A DNA stretch of 64,000 bases from assembly GCF_001677475.2 (NCBI RefSeq), contig NZ_CP015229.1, one strand, 5' to 3'. This DNA is from Escherichia coli (lineage in GTDB: Bacteria > Pseudomonadota > Gammaproteobacteria > Enterobacterales > Enterobacteriaceae). The position numbers were made by a program, and so were the translations under genes. Positions 5,847-16,277 of this stretch are shown here, in pieces; position 1 is the first letter of the stretch, and each line of letters opens with the position of its first letter. The notes under the pieces were generated by a model. The model was not told the origin of the DNA, made no database searches, and saw only the letters and a program-made list of their open reading frames with translations.

Positions 5847-6683
5847 ATGACCGAATTTACAACTCTTCTTCAGCAAGGAAACGCCTGGTTCTTCATCCCC
5901 AGCGCCATCTTACTTGGTGCGCTTCATGGCCTGGAACCAGGGCACTCAAAAACGATGATGGCGGCGTTTATCATCGCCATCAAAGGCACCATTAAACAGG
6001 CGGTGATGCTCGGACTGGCAGCAACTATTTCGCATACCGCAGTGGTCTGGTTGATTGCCTTTGGCGGGATGGTGATCAGCAAGCGTTTTACTGCTCAATC
6101 AGCAGAACCGTGGCTTCAGTTGATTTCCGCGGTGATCATTATTAGCACCGCGTTCTGGATGTTCTGGCGTACCTGGCGCGGCGAACGCAACTGGCTGGAG
6201 AATATGCACGGGCATGATCATGAGCATCATCACCATCATCACGAACATCATCAAGACCACGAACATCACCACGACCATGGACACCATCACGAACATGGCG
6301 AGTATCAGGATGCCCATGCACGAGCCCATGCCAATGACATTAAACGACGCTTTGATGGTAGAGAGGTCACCAACTGGCAAATTTTGTTATTTGGCTTAAC
6401 CGGTGGCCTTATCCCCTGCCCGGCAGCAATTACCGTGCTGTTGATTTGCATTCAGTTGAAAGCCCTGACACTGGGCGCAACACTGGTCGTCAGTTTCAGC
6501 ATTGGCCTGGCGTTAACGCTGGTCACCGTAGGCGTTGGCGCAGCAATCAGCGTTCAGCAGGTCGCAAAACGCTGGAGCGGATTTAACACTCTCGCTAAAC
6601 GCGCCCCCTATTTTTCCAGTCTGTTGATTGGCTTAGTTGGTGTGTATATGGGCGTACATGGCTTCATGGGCATAATGCGATAA
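5847..6683 (+). CDS. rcnA: nickel/cobalt efflux membrane protein with histidine-rich loop
   Basis: 278-aa ORF; N-terminal TM segments, central HxH/HHHHHH tract (about 6207-6335), recognised as RcnA. Confidence 0.95.
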   Translation: MTEFTTLLQQGNAWFFIPSAILLGALHGLEPGHSKTMMAAFIIAIKGTIKQAVMLGLAATISHTAVVWLIAFGGMVISKRFTAQSAEPWLQLISAVIIISTAFWMFWRTWRGERNWLENMHGHDHEHHHHHHEHHQDHEHHHDHGHHHEHGEYQDAHARAHANDIKRRFDGREVTNWQILLFGLTGGLIPCPAAITVLLICIQLKALTLGATLVVSFSIGLALTLVTVGVGAAISVQQVAKRWSGFNTLAKRAPYFSSLLIGLVGVYMGVHGFMGIMR

Positions 6684-6901
6684 CTCAATCCTTTAGGCTT
6701 GCATGTTATCTTCAGCCCAGGATGATTCTTAAATCAGCTATTTCCGCTGACTCTCTGCTCGCTAAGGATGCTTTTAGGGCATCCTTTCATTTACACTTTT
6801 TACGAAATCATGGGATCACTAACAAAATATCGCTTGTCAGTTATATTGTATGGCAGGAAAGATATGCGACTGATATTACAGATCCCCAAAGTGGAGAGTT
6901 T

Positions 6902-7246: not shown

Positions 7247-7265
7247 CCCCCTCATCATGAGGGGG
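7247..7265 (-). terminator. intrinsic terminator downstream of yehA (also abuts rcnB 3' end)
   Basis: 8-bp GC stem CCCCCTCA/TGAGGGGG with 3-nt loop; followed by T-run on minus strand. Confidence 0.7.
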
Positions 7266-7321
7266 AAATGCAGACACCTTGTTATTTTTTATTATTAGCC
7301 ACTTGCTCGTCTTGCTTGTTA

Positions 7322-8356
7322 TTAGTCGTATTTCACGTTGATTAATGCGGTTGCCTCCAGTGCGCCAGATTTAACTTTGTTTGTATCGTAGACGTAGTAA
7401 CTGGCTGTTATCGGAATTGAAACCGTTGTATCTGTAAGTTTTGACTTTGCCGCAATTTCTTTTAAATTTGTGTATCCTTTACTGCTGTTAGTGATATTTA
7501 AAAGTGTGACTGGCGAACCATTACTTTCAAGAATAAATCCTACGCCATTATCTTCCGCACCTTTCAGTATTGTGTTGCTGTTGGTTAACAAGTCAGAACT
7601 TGATAAATACACCTGCATTTTCCGTGATGTTTGATTTTGTTGACCTAATAAATTTTTACAACGCAGAATAATATCCCCTTTTTTACTATTTATTGTTGCT
7701 TTGTTACCTGTGGCTGGTAATTGTGAAACGGGAATACTGTCTAAAGTAATTAATAAATCGTCCGGTTTGCAGGTTGTGGTTATCGGGTTGTATGACAATG
7801 TCAGATTAAAGGAATAGACACCTGCATTTTGTGCCAATGCATTTCTGTAGCTATTTACACATGCATCCCATGACTTGCCACCTAATAAACACAGTAGAAA
7901 TTGTACTGCGGCACTCCCGCGTGTCGATGATGAAGCACTGGATAATGTCGCAACTCCATTAATCATCACTGAACCGCCGCCTCCCGCAGAAACATTTACT
8001 TTTGCATTACTGGACGCAGGTGTCACCGTTACCGAATAACCACTGGTGAAACTGGTCTGATTATTTGACAACGTGATGTTGTTTTTATTGGTCCATTCAA
8101 AATGTAAATTTAATTTAATGGTATCGTTATAAAGTCCAACAATAATATCCGACGGGCTCATAGGGGTGATAGTATTTGTACTCACGCATGACGAATCATT
8201 AAAATTATGCTCATAGGTCGCCATTTGTGTTTGAGTAAGTGCAAAATCCCCCTGAACAACCAAATTGTGCTGAACAGATAACTCACTATAACATGCCGCA
8301 TAGCTCACAGGCATAACCATCATCATTAATATAAATAGCATTATGCGAATTTCCAT
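7322..8356 (-). CDS. yehA: fimbrial adhesin-like protein (chaperone-usher system)
   Basis: 344-aa ORF with signal peptide; last gene of AT-rich fimbrial operon. Confidence 0.85.
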   Translation of the reverse strand: MEIRIMLFILMMMVMPVSYAACYSELSVQHNLVVQGDFALTQTQMATYEHNFNDSSCVSTNTITPMSPSDIIVGLYNDTIKLNLHFEWTNKNNITLSNNQTSFTSGYSVTVTPASSNAKVNVSAGGGGSVMINGVATLSSASSSTRGSAAVQFLLCLLGGKSWDACVNSYRNALAQNAGVYSFNLTLSYNPITTTCKPDDLLITLDSIPVSQLPATGNKATINSKKGDIILRCKNLLGQQNQTSRKMQVYLSSSDLLTNSNTILKGAEDNGVGFILESNGSPVTLLNITNSSKGYTNLKEIAAKSKLTDTTVSIPITASYYVYDTNKVKSGALEATALINVKYD

Positions 8357-8371
8357 AGAACCACCTGACTA

Positions 8372-10852
8372 TTACTGGCAAATATAATTTCTACTTTCAT
8401 CAATCTCTTTACCGAAGGTGATTGTGCATGAAAGTCCTTGTTGCTTATCAATTGCTACATTAACCGATGGCGGTACTTCATTGGTGCGAATAAATAACTG
8501 GCTTCCCTGGCCGACAACGCCAATATTATGACCATGGATATCATTGACTTCATAACCAAACGTTAATGGTTGACCATCCGCTCTTAACGCTTTTATAAAC
8601 CAGGGCTTGCGCTGATCGGTATCAAAATTAACCAGTACAACCGCGCCGCGAAAAGGGGCGGCAATTTTCCGGTTGCCACGTAATTCTGCTTCGCTATCGC
8701 TTTGCGACACATCCAGCATCAGGTGATTTTCCCGATAAGGTGTCATTCCGTCGTATACCACCACTCCATTATGGTTTGTTGTGCGATATTTTTGCCCATT
8801 GACATAAGCATCTTTAATTCCTGGCGCATTCATCACAGCAAACGTTTCGGAAAGACGGTTCGCCAGATTAACGCCACCCGACCAGGCGACAATGCCCCCT
8901 GAAACACTGGCTCCAGCCTGTCGATAAGTACTCGACTGACTATAACTGCCATTCACCGTTGCCACCGGCGCGTTCCAGGTTAAATTCGCTCCAGCTGTCG
9001 TTTCATTTCCCTGATGCTGATGACTCAGGTTGACCCCATAGTTAAATTGATCCCGGCTTCCAACGGTTCCCGATAATCCCGTATTATTTGAGGCAAAACC
9101 CTGATCATCAAACGTCGTTGAGTTAGACATATATATTTGCCGACGAGGCGTCGTAACGTCATCACCCCAATCAAAGGGAATCGATATAAAAATATTAAAA
9201 CGTTTCTCTTCATGATGATTCTCGTCATAAGCCTGGCTTGCCGCGAGGGTATAGCTTATCCGTCGCAGGTTGTTGGAATAACTCAACTGATAATCCTTAC
9301 TGCTGCCGCTACGCCCCCAGTAATCTCGCCATAACGTACTTAAGGACACAGAACCCCAGCCTTCTGGCAATGACTGGCTCATATTGGCAGAAAAGCTATT
9401 TTTACGGCCAAAATCGTTCTGGTAATAATCGGCAATGTCATAGATATCGTTTTCATCACGGCGATAATTATCTTTATTGTTTGCCCAAACGTGATCGTTA
9501 AATGTCCGGTAATCACGCGACGAATAACGCCAGGCCGCCAGACCAAAACGCGTCGACGTTTGGCTCACAAATTTGTTGTAGGCAATTTGATAACTTTGCC
9601 CGTCAAACACATCGCCGTTGTCTTGTTTACTATGCGACTTCGTGGCATCGACGGAAATGGCACCAATGCGTGTATTCCAGCCAGTCCCCAAAGTGAACGC
9701 GTAATAATTATTCGCGACCATCGATCCGCCATACAGCGTCAATAAGTTATTAAAACCATACTGATAACCCGCCTGGACAAAATCACTTTGTTTGCTCGCC
9801 CCTTCAATATGGCTACGACCCGCCGCAAAATCATATTTCGACACGCCAGGTTGCAGCATATTCGGCACCGCTGAATAAGGCACCAGATAGGTGGTTACCG
9901 AACCGTCCGCCTCTTTCACGCTGACATCAAGATCTGCTCCACCACCGGCCAACTGCAAATCTGTAATCGCAAACGGGCCAGGAGGAACCTCTTTCTGATA
10001 AACGACAAAACCATTCTGTTCAATAGTTACCAACGCGTTACTCTGAGCAATCCCCTGCACCCGTGGCGTAAAATTTTGTTTCGAGTTAGGCAACATCTGC
10101 ATATCACGAAACAACCGCACACCTCTGAAGCGAACAGAATCAAAAATATCGCTTGATGTATACATATCACCCACGCGAAGCGTGCCGAGAAGTTGGACAA
10201 ATCCACGTTCCAGATACAGGGTATTGCTTTTCCACACCCCTGGATTGTTATTTGTTTTACTGAAACTTGCATCAGAATGCAGTTGCCACCCCAGTAAATT
10301 TAACCCGCTGTTAAAACGTACATATGTACTCTTACTGTTACCCGACGCTTTATAGTCACTGTAATACTGACTCACATAATAAGAGGTATAAACCGCATTA
10401 ATACCCCGCTCCCAGTTTTCCGGTGGAACATAGCCACTTTCCAGTTCTTCCACCCAGGCCTGCGGGACACTGAAATCGAGACGAAAAACCCCGATATCCC
10501 AGGTATAGCTCCCACCCTGAACAAGTTGCTCAAATGTTAAACATTGCTTACCGCTGGCGAAGTTATCGCTATTAATGCCTAACCGCTTGATAACTTCTCT
10601 TGATAAACATGTTTCTTGCGGGTTGTCTTTAACAATAATCTCATATTTCCCGCGCCATTGCTTATTGACATAAATATCGATGTCATACTGCCCCGGCAAG
10701 GGTTGATTATCATCAAGACGAATATTTGCAACCTGCTGGTCTTTCATTCCACCTATCATAAAATGGGTATCAAAGGTTTCTTCAGCTGCATAAGCTTCAA
10801 TGCCGAGCAATAACGCTACGATTGCTGATGCAAGTGGGGTCATTCTCAACAT
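8372..10852 (-). CDS. yehB: fimbrial outer-membrane usher
   Basis: ~826-aa usher-family protein (start at Met 10852; ORF extends to 10867). Confidence 0.9.
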   Translation of the reverse strand: MLRMTPLASAIVALLLGIEAYAAEETFDTHFMIGGMKDQQVANIRLDDNQPLPGQYDIDIYVNKQWRGKYEIIVKDNPQETCLSREVIKRLGINSDNFASGKQCLTFEQLVQGGSYTWDIGVFRLDFSVPQAWVEELESGYVPPENWERGINAVYTSYYVSQYYSDYKASGNSKSTYVRFNSGLNLLGWQLHSDASFSKTNNNPGVWKSNTLYLERGFVQLLGTLRVGDMYTSSDIFDSVRFRGVRLFRDMQMLPNSKQNFTPRVQGIAQSNALVTIEQNGFVVYQKEVPPGPFAITDLQLAGGGADLDVSVKEADGSVTTYLVPYSAVPNMLQPGVSKYDFAAGRSHIEGASKQSDFVQAGYQYGFNNLLTLYGGSMVANNYYAFTLGTGWNTRIGAISVDATKSHSKQDNGDVFDGQSYQIAYNKFVSQTSTRFGLAAWRYSSRDYRTFNDHVWANNKDNYRRDENDIYDIADYYQNDFGRKNSFSANMSQSLPEGWGSVSLSTLWRDYWGRSGSSKDYQLSYSNNLRRISYTLAASQAYDENHHEEKRFNIFISIPFDWGDDVTTPRRQIYMSNSTTFDDQGFASNNTGLSGTVGSRDQFNYGVNLSHQHQGNETTAGANLTWNAPVATVNGSYSQSSTYRQAGASVSGGIVAWSGGVNLANRLSETFAVMNAPGIKDAYVNGQKYRTTNHNGVVVYDGMTPYRENHLMLDVSQSDSEAELRGNRKIAAPFRGAVVLVNFDTDQRKPWFIKALRADGQPLTFGYEVNDIHGHNIGVVGQGSQLFIRTNEVPPSVNVAIDKQQGLSCTITFGKEIDESRNYICQ

Positions 10853-10867
10853 AGGCAGCTCCTGCAA

Positions 10868-11542
10868 TTAAATTTTGTCACTAATATAGTTGCCGTGGTC
10901 ATCGATAATGGTCAGATACCAGTTATTTGCATTATTACTTTTGACATTAACACTCTGACTTTCTAAGGGGGCAATCATAATAGTTTCATAATTGACTTTG
11001 ATATTATTCGCTTTTACATCGGAAATCGTCACCCAGTTCGGCGAATCATTTTTTATCACCAGCCCATTGCCGCTACGATTTACCAGCAATTTCTTAAACG
11101 TTGCTTTATTAACCGGAGCAATACCCGCCGGTCGGTAAAACAATTTGATTCTGTTTTGCATCGCAAACTTCAGTGCATTCTTGCCTTCTTGTTCTGGACT
11201 ATTTGGTGGAATATCCAGAACATTAAGATAAAAAATGCTCTCTTTATTACTGGGCAACTTATTCGGCATGATTTTAATTTTTACTTGCTGTCCGGAGTTA
11301 GCCCCTATTTTTGCCACTGGTGGCGTTAGCATGAAAGGAACCTGAATCTTTTCCGGCGGCAGTGATGTGTCGCCATCATCAATCCACGCCTGAAGTAATG
11401 AAGATCGGTTTCCCTGATTCATCAACTGCACCATAACTTCTTTATTTTCTGCCGGGTAAATAATGCGCGTCCCGTAGATAACAATTCCGGCATGTGCAGG
11501 AAGGACTATAGAAAAAATGAGTAAAGATAATAATCCTTTCAT
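10868..11542 (-). CDS. yehC: periplasmic fimbrial chaperone (PapD-like)
   Basis: 224-aa ORF with signal peptide, chaperone family; directly upstream of usher. Confidence 0.85.
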   Translation of the reverse strand: MKGLLSLLIFSIVLPAHAGIVIYGTRIIYPAENKEVMVQLMNQGNRSSLLQAWIDDGDTSLPPEKIQVPFMLTPPVAKIGANSGQQVKIKIMPNKLPSNKESIFYLNVLDIPPNSPEQEGKNALKFAMQNRIKLFYRPAGIAPVNKATFKKLLVNRSGNGLVIKNDSPNWVTISDVKANNIKVNYETIMIAPLESQSVNVKSNNANNWYLTIIDDHGNYISDKI

Positions 11543-11622
11543 CTTAATGCCTCTTAAATTAAAAAGCCGCCATGGGGATAGCGGCCATGTTTATTACCTG
11601 GAGAAACTTGCAATTTTATTTA

Positions 11623-12165
11623 TTAATCCTGCGCCACACGCATAACCAGAGAAGATAACACATCACCTGATTGCACTGAGTTATCTGTCAGTTTCAGGTA
11701 TTTTGCTTTAAACGGAATAGCATATTGACCTTCCGCTGTTTTATAACTCTCAATGTTAAAAGGTGCAGAAACATCCAGGACATCGCTGTTATCACCTAAA
11801 TAGAGATAGTACCCCACGGTATCGTTGCTACTGGCTATCGCCTTATCGTTTCCGGTTATTTTATCGTTGGTAATCAACGAGAGTTTCACACCAGCAACTT
11901 CTTTCGGACAGCTAATTTTTAACATGCTGCTGGTTACACCGACTGCATCATCATAGGTCGAGTATTTAGCTTTACCTTCAAAGACAGTGGTTGGTACAGT
12001 TGGCATATTAATACTTACTGAATCACCACCCGCTTCGAATTTACACGGAGATTCTGCAATATTCCCTTTAATAGTTAATGTTCCGGTATCAACGTCTGCA
12101 GCAAATACTCCAGCGCTCATAAAAAAAGAAGAAAAGACAGCGGCAGCAATAATTGAACGTTTCAT
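11623..12165 (-). CDS. yehD: fimbrial major subunit-like protein
   Basis: 180-aa ORF with signal peptide and fimbrial subunit character. Confidence 0.85.
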   Translation of the reverse strand: MKRSIIAAAVFSSFFMSAGVFAADVDTGTLTIKGNIAESPCKFEAGGDSVSINMPTVPTTVFEGKAKYSTYDDAVGVTSSMLKISCPKEVAGVKLSLITNDKITGNDKAIASSNDTVGYYLYLGDNSDVLDVSAPFNIESYKTAEGQYAIPFKAKYLKLTDNSVQSGDVLSSLVMRVAQD

Positions 12166-12395
12166 AATATGTTCCTTAATAAAATTTATTTTTGGTTGTT
12201 AAGAGTCTGTATCTCTTGGAAACAAATTTCTCACATCAAAAAAGTTGCCGCAATGTAAACATATTGTTTTATTGATTTAAAACAAATTAACCATTGCAAT
12301 ATAAATACAACAAATACTTAAGAGTATTAAATATTTATCGCATCTATTAATTAATGTAGATTTATGTAAATGGTATTGTTGATATCAATAAAAAA

Positions 12396-12428
12396 AGCCG
12401 AAATCATTTATATAAATGATTTCGGCTT
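12396..12428 (-). terminator. intrinsic terminator downstream of yehE
   Basis: Inverted repeat AGCCGAAATCATTTA/TAAATGATTTCGGCT followed on minus strand by a T7 run. Confidence 0.7.
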
Positions 12429-12458
12429 TCTAAATGCAATTAAAACCAGGGTGGCAAA

Positions 12459-12740
12459 TTAATCGTAGCGATTTAACACGATTCGACGTTTGCTATCGCT
12501 ACCTGCAACAACCACTTCTGTCGTCACACCTTTGACTGGCGAAGAAACCTGATGACGGGTATCAACATCATACGTTAACTGACCACAATGCTGTTGAGGT
12601 TGACCATTAACCATAGCCATACTGCATGTTGGGGGACTGATCCTGCCATTAATCGTTAATGTGGCAGTCTGTGAAGAGAACGCGGGAGAAGCCATTCCAT
12701 AGGCAAGAAAAATAATTCCTGACAGCCAGTACTTATTCAT
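12459..12740 (-). CDS. yehE: small secreted protein of unknown function
   Basis: 93-aa ORF with signal peptide; recognised as YehE. Confidence 0.75.
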   Translation of the reverse strand: MNKYWLSGIIFLAYGMASPAFSSQTATLTINGRISPPTCSMAMVNGQPQQHCGQLTYDVDTRHQVSSPVKGVTTEVVVAGSDSKRRIVLNRYD

Positions 12741-12941
12741 TGAACGTTATCCCTGTAGTAAAGGTTATGCCTGGATAGAATGAGTGCATAACAAACTATA
12801 GCTGTACATCCACTACACAGCCACGAAGGATGATAATGAAGCATTGCCTGTACGATCAATCGACTTTATAGAGTTTCGGACGAAGGTCCGCAGAATATTC
12901 GCAGCATTAAATAAGTGTTCATTAATGCGGCAAAAACAAAT

Positions 12942-12972
12942 ACACCGCATCAATGTTACATCTCTGCGGTGT
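12942..12972 (-). terminator. intrinsic terminator downstream of mrp
   Basis: Stem ACACCGCA/TGCGGTGT followed on minus strand by T-rich run. Confidence 0.6.
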
Positions 12973-13002
12973 ATGAAAAACAACCAAAAAGGTTAATGCG
13001 CG

Positions 13003-14112
13003 TTAGACCGCGCGGAAGGAAATCTCGCCAGGAATGACTTCACCCTGCCAATAAAGCTGGGCAGCAACGCGGTCAGCCAGCTGGCGGTAGATAGCGGTAA
13101 ATTCGCTCTCCGGACGGCTGATAACCGTTGGCGTGCCTTTATCGAGATCTTCACGTAAGGAGATGTGTAACGGCATCTGCCCCAGCAACTGCGTGTGGTA
13201 TTTCTCGGCCAGTTTCTCTGCACCACCGGTACCGAAAATCGGTTCATGGTGACCACAGTTACTGCAAATGTGCACACTCATGTTCTCGACAATACCGAGC
13301 ACCGGAACCTCGACTTTCTCGAACATCACAATGCCTTTTTTCGCATCGATCAACGCGATGTCCTGCGGGGTGGTGACCACGACCGCACCAGTTACTGGAA
13401 TGTTTTGTGCCAGTGTCAATTGAATGTCACCGGTGCCTGGCGGCATATCAAGCACCAGATAGTCGAGATCCGGCCACAAGGTTTCCTGCAACATCTGCAT
13501 TAACGCCTTGCTCGCCATCGGACCACGCCACACCATCGCATTGTCGTCAGTGACCAGATAACCAATTGAATTGGTTGCCAGTCCATGAGACATAATCGGT
13601 GCCATATGGGTACCGTCCGGCGAAGTTGGACGCTGATTTTCTGCGCCCAGCATGGTGGGAATTGATGGGCCGTAGATATCGGCGTCCAGAATGCCGACTT
13701 TCGCCCCTTCCGCCGCCAGTGCCAGCGCCAGGTTTACCGCCGTGGAGGATTTACCCACGCCGCCTTTACCTGAGCTGACCGCAATGATGTTCTTCACGCC
13801 GTTAATTCCCGGCTGATTCTTCACGCGTTTTAAGGTGGCGATATTATGCGACAGTTTCCAGTCAATAGCTTTCGCCCCGGTGATACGCAGCAGTTCGGCG
13901 CTACATTGCTCTTTTAACTCTTCGAACGCGCTATGCCAGACGAATGGCATAACCAGTTCCACATGCAACGTGTCGTCCATCCAGGCGACATGGTGCAACG
14001 CTTTCAGCGTGGTGAGGTTATGCTTCAGGGTTGGGTGCTGAAAATTGGCCAGTGTCCCGGCGACCATTGCGCGCAAGGCTTCTGGTGATTTGGCCTGGGA
14101 TTGTTCGTTCAT
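13003..14112 (-). CDS. mrp: Fe-S cluster carrier ATPase (Mrp/ApbC/NBP35 family)
   Basis: 369-aa product from Met at 14112 (ORF extends to 14142); P-loop SGKGGVGKS and CxxC motif. Confidence 0.95.
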   Translation of the reverse strand: MNEQSQAKSPEALRAMVAGTLANFQHPTLKHNLTTLKALHHVAWMDDTLHVELVMPFVWHSAFEELKEQCSAELLRITGAKAIDWKLSHNIATLKRVKNQPGINGVKNIIAVSSGKGGVGKSSTAVNLALALAAEGAKVGILDADIYGPSIPTMLGAENQRPTSPDGTHMAPIMSHGLATNSIGYLVTDDNAMVWRGPMASKALMQMLQETLWPDLDYLVLDMPPGTGDIQLTLAQNIPVTGAVVVTTPQDIALIDAKKGIVMFEKVEVPVLGIVENMSVHICSNCGHHEPIFGTGGAEKLAEKYHTQLLGQMPLHISLREDLDKGTPTVISRPESEFTAIYRQLADRVAAQLYWQGEVIPGEISFRAV

Positions 14113-14243
14113 CCCGACTCCTTTTTTGTATAGATAAACCATCAGCTGATAGTTTACCTGAAGAATATAGAGAAGTACTTACTTAACATTTTCCCATTTG
14201 GTACTATCTAACCCCTTTTCACTATTAAGAAGTAATGCCTACT

Positions 14244-16277
14244 ATGACTCAAGTCGCGAAGAAAATTCTGGTGACGTGCGCACTGCCGTACGCTAACGGC
14301 TCAATCCACCTCGGCCATATGCTGGAGCACATCCAGGCTGATGTCTGGGTCCGTTACCAGCGAATGCGCGGCCACGAGGTCAACTTCATCTGCGCCGACG
14401 ATGCCCACGGCACACCGATCATGCTGAAAGCTCAGCAGCTTGGTATCACTCCGGAGCAGATGATTGGCGAAATGAGTCAGGAGCATCAGACTGATTTCGC
14501 AGGCTTTAACATCAGCTATGACAACTATCACTCAACGCACAGCGAAGAGAACCGCCAGTTGTCAGAACTTATTTATTCTCGCCTGAAAGAAAACGGTTTT
14601 ATTAAAAACCGCACCATCTCTCAGCTGTACGATCCGGAAAAAGGCATGTTCCTGCCGGACCGTTTTGTGAAAGGCACCTGCCCGAAATGTAAATCCCCGG
14701 ATCAATACGGCGATAACTGTGAAGTCTGCGGCGCGACCTACAGCCCGACTGAGCTGATCGAGCCTAAATCGGTGGTTTCTGGTGCTACGCCGGTAATGCG
14801 TGATTCTGAACACTTCTTCTTTGATCTGCCCTCTTTCAGCGAAATGCTGCAGGCATGGACCCGCAGCGGCGCGTTGCAGGAGCAAGTGGCAAACAAAATG
14901 CAGGAGTGGTTTGAATCTGGCCTGCAACAGTGGGATATCTCCCGCGATGCGCCGTACTTCGGTTTTGAAATTCCGAACGCACCGGGCAAATATTTCTACG
15001 TCTGGCTGGATGCGCCGATTGGCTACATGGGTTCTTTCAAGAATCTGTGCGACAAACGCGGCGACACCACCAGCTTCGATGAATACTGGAAGAAAGATTC
15101 CACCGCCGAGCTGTACCACTTCATCGGTAAAGATATCGTTTACTTCCACAGCCTGTTCTGGCCTGCCATGCTGGAAGGCAGCAACTTCCGCAAGCCGACC
15201 AACCTGTTTGTTCATGGCTATGTGACGGTGAACGGCGCGAAGATGTCCAAGTCTCGCGGCACCTTTATTAAAGCCAGCACCTGGCTGAATCATTTTGACG
15301 CTGACAGCCTGCGTTACTACTACACTGCGAAACTCTCTTCGCGCATTGATGATATCGATCTCAACCTGGAAGATTTCGTTCAGCGTGTGAATGCCGATAT
15401 CGTGAATAAAGTGGTTAACCTGGCCTCCCGTAACGCTGGCTTTATCAACAAGCGTTTTGACGGCGTGCTGGCAAGCGAACTGGCTGACCCGCAGTTGTAC
15501 AAAACCTTCACGGATGCCGCTGAAGTGATTGGTGAAGCATGGGAAAGCCGCGAATTTGGTAAAGCAGTGCGCGAAATTATGGCGCTGGCTGATCTGGCTA
15601 ACCGCTATGTCGATGAACAGGCTCCGTGGGTGGTGGCGAAACAGGAAGGCCGCGATGCCGACCTGCAGGCAATTTGTTCGATGGGCATCAACCTGTTCCG
15701 CGTGCTGATGACTTACCTGAAGCCGGTACTGCCGAAACTGACCGAGCGTGCAGAAGCATTCCTCAATACAGAACTGACCTGGCATGGTATCCAGCAACCG
15801 CTGCTGGCGCATAAAGTGAATCCGTTCAAGGCACTGTATAACCGTATCGATATGAAACAGGTGGAAGCACTGGTGGAAGCATCCAAAGAAGAAGTGAAAG
15901 CCACAGCCGCACCGGTAACTGGCCCACTGGCTGACGACCCGATTCAGGAAACCATCACCTTTGACGACTTCGCCAAAGTTGACCTGCGTGTGGCGCTGAT
16001 TGAAAACGCGGAGTTTGTTGAAGGCTCTGACAAACTGCTGCGTCTGACACTGGATCTCGGTGGTGAAAAGCGTAATGTCTTCTCAGGCATCCGTTCTGCT
16101 TATCCAGACCCACAGGCACTGATTGGTCGTCACACCATTATGGTGGCCAACCTGGCACCACGTAAAATGCGCTTCGGTATCTCCGAAGGCATGGTGATGG
16201 CTGCCGGTCCTGGCGGGAAAGATATCTTCCTGCTAAGCCCGGATGCCGGTGCTAAACCGGGTCATCAGGTGAAATAA
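14244..16277 (+). CDS. metG: methionyl-tRNA synthetase
   Basis: 677-aa product; HIGH motif (SIHLGH) and KMSKS motif present. Confidence 0.98.

Follow-up and report, generated by a model that had tools for sequence, protein, structure and literature searches.

Two questions are raised by the AT-rich fimbrial gene cluster at positions 7322-12740 of the DNA considered here: whether its low G+C content records a recent arrival, and whether the small gene yehE that precedes it shares its transcript. The window, a stretch of 64,000 nucleotides from Escherichia coli (contig NZ_CP015229.1), shares only approximately 97-98% identity with any complete E. coli genome, and the experimental data on the locus all come from E. 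coli K-12. Taken as a whole, the features of the region are very probably explained by a yehDCBA fimbrial operon driven from an AT-rich spacer and a separate, monocistronic yehE.

The Yeh locus and its relatives

The region is the Yeh chaperone-usher fimbrial locus of Escherichia (Salmonella Stc-type, gamma-4) together with the small companion gene yehE; the placement of the Yeh usher in the gamma-4 clade is taken from the literature (PMC11287998; PMC12778044). Intact genes for an adhesin (yehA), an usher (yehB), a chaperone (yehC), a major subunit (yehD) and a DUF2574 protein (yehE) lie on the minus strand (Table 1), and of the 5426 complete E. coli genomes, 5224 carry these gene names in RefSeq. 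The usher, the PapD-like chaperone, and the major pilin with a two-domain adhesin are those of a Yeh/Stc-type operon, as is the site, with rcnB on one side and apbC-metG on the other, a position common to Salmonella stc. The gene identities offered in the preliminary description of this DNA are thus upheld by Pfam domains and RefSeq annotation.

The closest known system is yehDCBA with yehE in K-12 (b2108-b2112), which has the same genes, order, flanks, spacer and terminator at approximately 97% nucleotide identity and encodes proteins of matching length (344, 826, 224, 180 and 93 aa). Relative to K-12, the lineage of the window differs by 2-3% from all complete E. coli genomes, yehC carries a mosaic patch of 85-92% identity, and the T-run of the terminator has one extra T. 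In UPEC nomenclature the YehA protein is named YehD; the structure and pectin binding of the UTI89 YehA orthologue have been published (PMC12778044). Salmonella stcABCD and the yehE homologue upstream of it are orthologous and identically placed; there too a terminator follows yehE and the leader is conserved, and Stc has been described as the Salmonella counterpart of Yeh (PMC3559732; PMC12778044). However, the Salmonella major subunit is only about 34% identical to that of the window and YehE about 49%; over Salmonella and Citrobacter orthologues together, YehD identity is only 30-36%.

AT-richness, H-NS binding and the cryptic state of the locus are already in print for E. coli, and the main value of the present findings is the correct annotation of a catalogued locus. 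Additionally, recent work connects Yeh/Stc fimbriae with pectin binding and gut colonisation, and the results on the leader and on YehE are potentially useful to those who study these fimbriae.

Table 1. Features of the Yeh locus in window coordinates, with the evidence for each
Feature	Position	Strand	Evidence
Terminator-like hairpin after yehA	7247..7265	-	CCCCCTCA-TGA-TGAGGGGG then CTTTTTTT; 8 pairs, 6 G-C; fold
yehA, two-domain tip adhesin, 344 aa	7322..8356	-	Pfam Fimbrial, residues 184-344; NCBIfam adhesin equivalog PRK15252, 688 bits; RefSeq
yehB, outer-membrane usher, 826 aa (counted from the ATG used in K-12; open frame extends to TTG at 10867)	8372..10852	-	Pfam PapC_N (E = 7e-34), Usher (1.4e-196), PapC_C (5.7e-09); ORF list; RefSeq
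yehC, periplasmic chaperone, 224 aa	10868..11542	-	Pfam PapD_N (E = 3.9e-41), PapD_C (7.7e-09); RefSeq
G+C-rich yehD-yehC hairpin	11565..11586	-	Scan and locus comparison
yehD, major fimbrial subunit, 180 aa	11623..12165	-	Pfam Fimbrial above cut-off; RefSeq
Conserved yehD promoter/leader block	12166..12320	-	Cross-genus and K-12/O157 identity
yehE-yehD intergenic spacer, 293 bp, GC 0.246	12166..12458		Published K-12 H-NS-bound 'promoter island' (PMC3661553 Table 1)
yehE intrinsic terminator	~12390..12431	-	18-bp perfect stem, 4-nt loop, TTTTTTT; scan, fold, covariation
yehE, 93 aa, DUF2574	12459..12740	-	Pfam DUF2574 (E = 1e-51)
yehE upstream region, presumed promoter	12741..12930	-	Sequence reading and scan
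apbC terminator hairpin	12940..12974	-	10-bp stem then UUGUUUUU; z = -4.0; 0/200 shuffles fold as well

Base composition and age of the locus

At 0.416, the GC content of 7322-12740 falls below that of the whole window (0.507) and of the left (0.521) and right (0.515) flanks, and no other stretch of 5.4 kb in the 64 kb is as low (median 0.512). All five genes take part (yehA 0.384, yehB 0.456, yehC 0.394, yehD 0.407, yehE 0.447, versus 0.535 for apbC and 0.526 for metG), and GC3 is 0.34-0.44 in the yeh genes versus 0.61-0.62 in apbC and metG. The AT-richness of yehA-D relative to their neighbours, noticed earlier by eye, is therefore borne out by windowed GC calculation.

The horizontal origin proposed alongside it fares less evenly. 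Compositional methods do flag the locus: in K-12 it is called foreign by IslandViewer/GIST and two compositional methods (PMC3661553). Moreover, K-12 and O157 differ by 10-60% over exactly the Yeh block, with flanks 98-100% identical, as a genomic island recently acquired in the lineage of the window might also appear. Such a recent acquisition is nonetheless very improbable. The metG-apbC-yehE-yehDCB arrangement, with equally low GC, is common to Escherichia species, Citrobacter and Salmonella; E. albertii, E. whittamii, Citrobacter and Salmonella share the site and gene order and have a GC of 0.41-0.45 between flanks of 0.51-0.55. This arrangement has been published, and the Yeh/Stc locus described as ancestral and core-associated (PMC3559732), and the contrast between K-12 and O157 fits an old locus whose alleles were replaced through recombination rather than a new insertion. 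Because the same metG-apbC site and equal AT-richness are found in three genera, any acquisition would be ancient. By this comparison, AT-richness marks an ancient, maintained state rather than recent transfer.

An intrinsic terminator after yehE

The preliminary description placed a strong intrinsic terminator at 12396-12428, between yehE and yehD, and these coordinates match a stem confirmed by both fold and covariation. A generic terminator scan found 8 sites in 7.4 kb versus 7.4 expected by chance, so this hairpin stands out by its strength and conservation, not by the scan count. It occupies 12431..12392 on the minus strand, begins 27 nt past the yehE stop codon and has GCCG/CGGC at the base of its stem. 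Its 91-nt context has a folding energy of -25.4 kcal/mol (z = -5.5), which none of 200 shuffles matches. Over 11 sequences, 13 core pairs are 98.6% paired, five of them with compensatory double changes; none of 500 shuffles reaches as high a pairing score, and sliding the partner columns leaves only 35-46% paired. Each of the 14 yehE-like loci read has a hairpin directly behind the stop codon, and in most a clear T-run comes next; the T-run is weak or interrupted in three (L007, L010 and L012). Recurrence after every yehE-like gene examined, together with the compensatory changes, argues strongly that the hairpin is a real intrinsic terminator. At a permissive threshold, Rfam returned only sub-threshold microRNA/sRNA hairpin look-alikes over it (11400-13100 searched). 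Because the stem is A+U-rich (5 G-C of 18 pairs), termination may be incomplete, with some read-through.

Instead of terminating RNA, the same palindrome could serve chiefly as a DNA operator to which a dimeric regulator of yehD binds. The apical 7 bp (ATCATT...AATGAT) hardly vary over three genera, with four of the seven pairs invariant, two with a single exception each, and a closing pair that alternates among U-G, C-G and U-A. Furthermore, an ATCAT-N6-GAATGAT repeat is also found upstream of the L012 operon, whose yehE-like gene is inverted. However, the lower stem changes by compensatory substitutions and by G-U pairs possible only in the RNA of one strand (the stem of Citrobacter sp. MGH106 retains five, pairable on the yehE sense strand only), an unrelated stem sequence occupies the equivalent position in locus L014, and the T-runs and the constant closeness to the stop codon are those of a terminator. 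A mainly operator role is accordingly given very little weight. Operator and terminator roles of a palindrome are not mutually exclusive.

Probable transcription of yehE apart from yehDCBA

With its own promoter region, yehE would form a monocistronic unit between the apbC terminator and its own strong terminator, which would halt most of its transcripts. At the upstream end, the apbC hairpin probably insulates yehE from transcription entering from that side. Candidate promoter elements are TATAGT at 12800..12795, preceded by C, and TTGATC-N18-TATCAT at 12859..12830. In K-12, a ChIP-seq peak of sigma-S RNA polymerase was assigned to yehE by its authors (PMC4447067); in window coordinates this peak would fall at 12741..12930. 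Elsewhere, a Yeh-type operon (L012/L013; 73% identity in YehB, 67% in YehC and 60% in YehD) has its yehE-like gene in divergent orientation and therefore cannot be co-transcribed with it, and in L012 the block upstream of yehD is kept with no tandem yehE gene before it. Entries for 3' ends or transcription starts of yehE or yehD were not found in the supplementary tables searched for PMC7815308.

Alternatively, yehE and yehDCBA could be a single five-gene operon in which the hairpin, as a leaky attenuator, does no more than adjust how much yehE message is made relative to that of the structural genes. The genes are adjacent and co-oriented in Escherichia, Salmonella and Citrobacter, a preprint names the unit the 'yehEDCBA operon' (bioRxiv 10.1101/2024.06.20.599902), and the A+U-rich stem would suit an attenuator. 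Against this stand the strength and covariation of the terminator, the conserved, promoter-like block of 150 nt downstream of it and the divergent gene of L012/L013; moreover, a table of SlyA-induced genes gives the operon as yehDCBA, with yehE absent (PMC5797941). The five-gene reading is distinctly unlikely. Separate transcription of yehE, as suggested in the preliminary description, is well supported, if indirectly, by the comparative evidence and the sigma-S polymerase peak.

The yehD spacer: silencing and a conserved leader

The genes yehD-yehC-yehB-yehA would form one operon driven from the very AT-rich spacer before yehD. Within that spacer, 12166-12395 has a GC content of 0.222; the 230-bp windows with the least GC anywhere in the 64 kb all lie here (first percentile 0.348). 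A/T runs of at least 8 nt number 27 per kb, versus 3.7 per kb window-wide, and the tracts include an 18-nt run, A6, A7 and T5, in full agreement with the extreme AT-richness first noted for this stretch.

The literature on K-12 indicates that H-NS covers the spacer and that little is transcribed from it in laboratory culture. The yehD/yehE spacer is listed among H-NS-bound 'promoter islands' (PMC3661553), yehDCBA is listed in the H-NS regulon and is induced 3.6-fold when SlyA is overproduced (PMC5797941), and the locus lies inside a static protein-occupancy domain (bioRxiv 10.1101/2024.06.20.599902). These publications accord with the H-NS silencing and crypticity proposed earlier; H-NS occupancy and de-repression are in print for K-12 only (PMC3661553 and PMC5797941, citing Kahramanoglou, Oshima and Korea 2010; bioRxiv 10.1101/2024.06.20.599902). 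The window has the A/T tracts and the GC content well under average of an H-NS-silenced locus, though not the recent acquisition. Matches to the high-affinity H-NS motif TCGATAAATT in the locus all carry two mismatches and are not distinctive.

An AT-rich, H-NS-bound spacer is shared with the H-NS-silenced K-12 operons yad, sfm, elf/ycb, yra and ybg and with 'promoter islands', and Yeh resembles the cryptic K-12 chaperone-usher operons in its poor laboratory expression and its de-repression by the H-NS antagonist SlyA. Unlike in those operons, loss of protein occupancy alone fails to induce yehDCBA, and the yeh spacer contains a block conserved across genera. Together, these two differences point to an additional, specific activator.

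The conserved block directly precedes yehD, and transcription of yehDCBA would start within its approximately 150 nt. It contains the palindrome TTGTTTTA-N6-TAAAACAA at 12264-12285, TTTACATTGCGGCAAC at 12244-12259, TGTGAGAAAT, a small AAGAG-N7-CTCTT stem and the Shine-Dalgarno sequence AAGGA. The block is 73-90% identical to those of Salmonella and Citrobacter, versus 25-50% for the mature coding part of yehD, and between K-12 and O157 it keeps 95-96% identity, versus 67-81% in neighbouring stretches. Its core motifs are also retained in the distant loci L012, L014 and L015. That the leader is conserved far beyond yehD itself may be a new observation. No transcription start or regulator of the block was found in the literature searched, and the transcription start site of stc was still reported as unknown in 2016 (PMC5137417). 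A simple sigma-70 scan showed no enrichment of promoter-like sites in the locus (13 versus 16.8 expected) and no convincing yehD promoter; inspection by eye, a reading without statistics, gave no convincing match in the block to sigma-54, CRP, IHF, Fur or RcsAB consensus sequences, and the permissive Rfam search assigned no family to the leader. Because the block is conserved beyond its gene and neither start nor regulator was found in the literature, it offers a defined target in the search for the signal that turns on Yeh/Stc fibres.

YehE, a companion with a pilin-like N-terminus

YehE is predicted to be a small secreted beta-protein whose mature N-terminus resembles the N-terminal extension of pilins. 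As in pilins, a signal peptide is followed by an extension with alternating hydrophobic residues and then a Cys. The mature N-terminus, SQTATLTINGRISPPTC, aligns with the YehD N-terminal extension (hhalign probability 82-96%), and the best PDB profile matches of YehE are to the N-terminus of FimG, ADVTITVNGKVVAKPC, an extension from the type 1 and P pili (fim, pap), which are built by donor-strand exchange and include the terminator subunit PapH. This likeness to a pilin donor strand, seen in sequence comparison, may be new. Beyond the N-terminus, no incomplete Ig-like pilin fold and no Pfam Fimbrial match were detected in YehE, the fold predicted by AF2 has no pilin match, and an exhaustive family profile search found no link to ordinary pilins. 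That search recovered only 31 relatives, a narrow enterobacterial family. No NCBIfam model matches YehE, and a literature search for DUF2574 returned no papers and no YehE phenotype or function. The dN/dS of yehE is 0.18-0.35. A C-terminal likeness to pilins (Gly at -14, penultimate Tyr) seen by eye was set aside as unsupported (global hhalign probability 35%).

Its own promoter and terminator, the lack of any function or phenotype in that search and a predicted fold unlike any pilin would all suit a yehE that is unrelated to the genes beside it and plays no part in fimbrial biology. This appears unlikely, as yehE-like genes were found only beside Yeh-type operons (14 of 14 loci read, one at a different chromosomal site), the divergent haplotype block of O157 takes in yehE along with yehDCBA, and the N-terminus is pilin-like. 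A more specific proposal, speculative and rather improbable as it stands, is that YehE is a pilin-derived 'half subunit' consisting of a signal peptide and a donor-strand extension, with a small beta-domain in place of the groove-bearing body. In that case, the YehE N-terminus could fill the groove of YehD (or YehA) while offering no groove back, and YehE would be a chain terminator, an anchor or a periplasmic brake on Yeh fibre growth. Its own promoter, sigma-S polymerase-bound in K-12, and terminator would then allow fibre length or number to be set independently of the H-NS-silenced operon. The constant presence of YehE beside the operon and its donor-strand-like N-terminus supply a testable hypothesis for YehE, to which no function is assigned. 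None of the four genes of the Yeh operon encodes a subunit dedicated to such a chain-terminator or anchor role.

Further hairpins in the operon

Between the convergent genes yehA and rcnB, the terminator-like hairpin listed in Table 1 is probably the end of the yehDCBA transcript, judging from its sequence. The G+C-rich yehD-yehC hairpin may be a partial terminator or a stem-loop that stabilises the mRNA, either of which would favour the major-subunit message. All 12 loci examined have a G+C-rich hairpin here, with differing stem sequences, and only in K-12-like alleles does a T-run follow.

Gene content and base composition

The yeh locus is catalogued; the preliminary finding was correct and its interpretation largely right. 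RefSeq names and Pfam domains identify yehB (826 aa; PapC_N/Usher/PapC_C), yehC (224 aa; PapD_N/PapD_C), yehD (180 aa; Fimbrial), yehA (344 aa; Fimbrial at residues 184-344) and yehE (93 aa; DUF2574). All five reading frames are of K-12 length, so the locus is intact in the window. Of 5426 complete E. coli genomes (RefSeq), 5224 carry it at a coverage of at least 80%. Nomenclature differs in UPEC, where the major subunit is called YehA and the adhesin is called YehD (PMC12778044). YehD (11623-12165) scores 112.7 bits against the NCBIfam equivalog 'fimbrial protein YehD', below its cut-off of 136. An NCBIfam search with YehE (12459-12740) matched no model; its RefSeq name is nonetheless 'YehE family protein'.

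The yehA-D genes had been described as AT-rich relative to their neighbours, and the yehD upstream region as extremely so, with long A/T tracts. Windowed GC confirms both. The value is 0.416 in 7322-12740, the lowest among all 5.4-kb windows within the 64 kb, vs 0.507 for the whole window and 0.521 and 0.515 for the flanks. The five yeh genes have a third-codon-position GC of 0.34-0.44, compared with 0.61-0.62 for apbC and metG. The spacer upstream of yehD (12166-12395) has a GC of 0.222, the minimum among 230-bp stretches of the window, and carries 27 A/T runs of at least eight per kb, compared with 3.7 per kb window-wide.

Hairpins and candidate promoter elements of the yeh locus
Feature	Position	Strand	Description
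apbC terminator	12974..12940	minus	10-bp stem, 15-nt internally paired loop, U-run
Candidate yehE promoter	12859..12830		TTGATC-N18-TATCAT, within presumed sigma-S peak region
Candidate yehE promoter element	12800..12795		TATAGT, C before it, within presumed sigma-S peak region
yehE terminator	12431..12392	minus	18-bp perfect stem, 4-nt loop, then seven T
yehD-yehC hairpin	11565-11586		G+C-rich; present in 12/12 loci examined
Operon-end hairpin	7265..7247		hairpin + T7; probably ends the operon

The yehE terminator

A strong intrinsic terminator had been placed between yehE and yehD (12396-12428), and comparative evidence bears this out. The hairpin begins 27 nt past the yehE stop codon and folds in context at -25.4 kcal/mol (z = -5.5; 0 of 200 shuffles as stable). 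A generic terminator scan of the region showed no enrichment (8 sites vs 7.4 expected); the case for this terminator lies in its strength and conservation. A hairpin follows the yehE-like gene in 14 of 14 loci, with a clear T-run after most and weak or interrupted T-runs in L007, L010 and L012. When 11 spacers are aligned, the 13 core stem pairs are 98.6% paired, and five stem pairs are altered on both sides (15 cells). The covariation score was reached by none of 500 shuffles, and with partner columns slid only 35-46% are paired. Moreover, the stem of Citrobacter sp. MGH106 keeps five G-U pairs, which are possible only in yehE sense-strand RNA. By these comparative criteria, the terminator appears functional.

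The apical seven pairs of the stem (ATCATT...AATGAT; 12397-12426) are near-constant in the 11 sequences from three genera, whereas compensatory changes occur in the basal pairs. Four apical pairs are invariant, two have a single exception each, and the closing pair is U-G, C-G or U-A. The apical constraint is sequence-specific.

The stem sequences of the yehD-yehC hairpin differ among the 12 loci, and a T-run follows it only in K-12-like alleles. Stem-loops after major-subunit genes have been described in other fimbrial operons, including pap and fim, and the yehD-yehC hairpin fits these; it would increase the proportion of message for the major subunit.

yehE as a probable separate transcription unit

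The apbC gene has its own terminator, missed by a simple scan because of its loop-size limit, and the promoter of yehE must thus lie no more than about 190 nt away. In K-12, a sigma-S RNA polymerase ChIP-seq peak (2190800-2190949) is assigned to yehE (PMC4447067). Two candidate promoter elements are listed in the table. Transferred from K-12 to window coordinates, the peak would cover the yehE start codon and ~130 nt upstream.

In the distant Yeh-type loci L012 and L013 (3975-5273), the operon lies at another chromosomal site, beside a mechanosensitive-channel gene, and its proteins are 73% (YehB), 67% (YehC) and 60% (YehD) identical to those of the window. The yehE-like gene (39% identity) lies on the other strand, with a 483-bp spacer between it and the operon; because it is divergent, co-transcription is impossible there. 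Its terminator differs, and the motifs in front of the major-subunit gene are kept. An ATCAT-N6-GAATGAT repeat upstream of the L012 operon resembles the yehE terminator apex. This arrangement suggests that the yehE-like gene was inverted locally, leaving the repeat upstream of the operon.

Past the yehE terminator, the 150 nt adjoining yehD (12166-12320, minus strand) share 73-90% identity with Salmonella and Citrobacter, compared with 25-50% for mature yehD coding sequence. Between K-12 and O157, the same stretch is 95-96% identical and neighbouring stretches 67-81%. This pattern is the one expected of a promoter and leader under selection. Its palindrome, TTGTTTTA-N6-TAAAACAA, is near-invariant across Escherichia, Salmonella and Citrobacter, with E. 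albertii alone differing; the leader also contains TTTACATTGCGGCAAC, and its core motifs are kept in distant Yeh-type loci. An Rfam search of the leader matched no family, and the Salmonella stc transcription start was still reported unknown in 2016 (PMC5137417). The conserved leader is a modest lead, with no prior description found in the literature searched.

Taken together, the apbC terminator, the sigma-S peak (PMC4447067), the conserved yehD block and the divergence in L012/L013 form an indirect but consistent case for separate transcription of yehE, which the preliminary description had considered probable. Co-transcription with yehDCBA is implied by one preprint that writes 'yehEDCBA operon' (bioRxiv 10.1101/2024.06.20.599902), and the terminator stem is A+U-rich, so some read-through may occur.

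Silencing by H-NS in K-12

The H-NS silencing thought likely for the locus is already published for K-12 (PMC3661553, PMC5797941) and is carried over to the window by homology (~97% identity). The yehD/yehE spacer is one of 78 K-12 'promoter islands', and the data sets of Kahramanoglou and Oshima mark it as H-NS-bound (PMC3661553). H-NS regulon lists include yehDCBA, and SlyA overproduction leads to a 3.6-fold rise (PMC5797941). Korea et al. 2010, as cited in PMC5797941, described yehDCBA as cryptic, functional and H-NS-repressed. Additionally, the locus lies inside a static extended protein-occupancy domain, and loss of occupancy alone did not induce yehDCBA (bioRxiv 10.1101/2024.06.20.599902).

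The YehE protein

yehE is a genuine gene and evolves under purifying selection (dN/dS 0.18-0.35, at divergences up to dS ~1.9). Its family is tiny (31 proteins retrieved when 1.84 billion representative proteins were searched with the family profile), and the genomic context was a Yeh-type operon for every relative read. In profile-profile comparison, YehE residues 1-42 align with YehD residues 1-44 (probability 96%, E 2e-9). With signal peptides removed, 17 columns align, YehE SQTATLTINGRISPPTC with YehD VDTGTLTIKGNIAESPC, at 47% identity and 82% probability; they pair the YehE mature N-terminus (residues 23-39) with the N-terminal extension of YehD. Against PDB sequences, the family profile matches best at the FimG N-terminus, ADVTITVNGKVVAKPC, with which the YehE mature N-terminus aligns (E 0.26-0.75, not significant alone). 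In type 1 pili, the FimG N-terminus is the donor strand inserted into FimH.

The remaining ~50 YehE residues have five predicted beta-strands (pLDDT ~80 over this stretch). YehE was not classed as a pilin because the predicted structure of this remainder matched no known fold, and it gave no Pfam Fimbrial signal or pilin profile match. We hypothesize that YehE carries an N-terminus resembling a donor strand but lacks an acceptor groove, and that it could cap or brake fibre growth. The pilin-like N-terminus is a modest lead; a DUF2574 literature search showed no earlier description.

Origin and recombination

The horizontal origin proposed from AT-richness requires qualification. IslandViewer, GIST and two compositional methods score the K-12 spacer as foreign (PMC3661553). 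Recent transfer is improbable: the order metG-apbC-yehE-yehD-yehC-yehB recurs in E. albertii, E. whittamii, two further Escherichia lineages, two Citrobacter and Salmonella enterica subsp. arizonae, each with a GC of 0.41-0.45 in the yeh part vs 0.51-0.55 in the flank. Since order and low GC are common to Escherichia, Citrobacter and Salmonella, low GC is an old, maintained property and offers no evidence for recent transfer. This synteny agrees with published work in which Yeh is core-associated and ancestral, and the equivalent of Salmonella Stc (PMC3559732).

Recombination nevertheless acts on the locus. Between K-12 (L001) and O157:H7 FRIK1989 (L011), rcnB and apbC are 98-100% identical, yehA 35-60% and the remaining yeh block 67-95%. 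The divergent block has boundaries near 7300 and 12900, with yehE and its promoter region inside, and looks like an old allelic replacement.

A patch of yehC (11000-11400) is 85-92% identical to K-12, compared with 96-100% for the rest of the locus, and synonymous divergence is 0.415 in yehC vs 0.07-0.08 in yehD and yehE; the patch is likely a recombination mosaic. Another short variable patch lies to the left of the yeh block (6500-6799; the rcnA 3' part and rcnA-rcnB spacer), where identity to O157 is 77-88%; over the 400 nt that follow, it is 95-100%. Although apbC and metG (e.g. 13003-16277) are housekeeping genes, they reach no more than 97.9% identity with any of the 5426 complete E. coli genomes. 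The window lineage therefore falls beyond sampled E. coli or at its margin, and may be a cryptic Escherichia clade.
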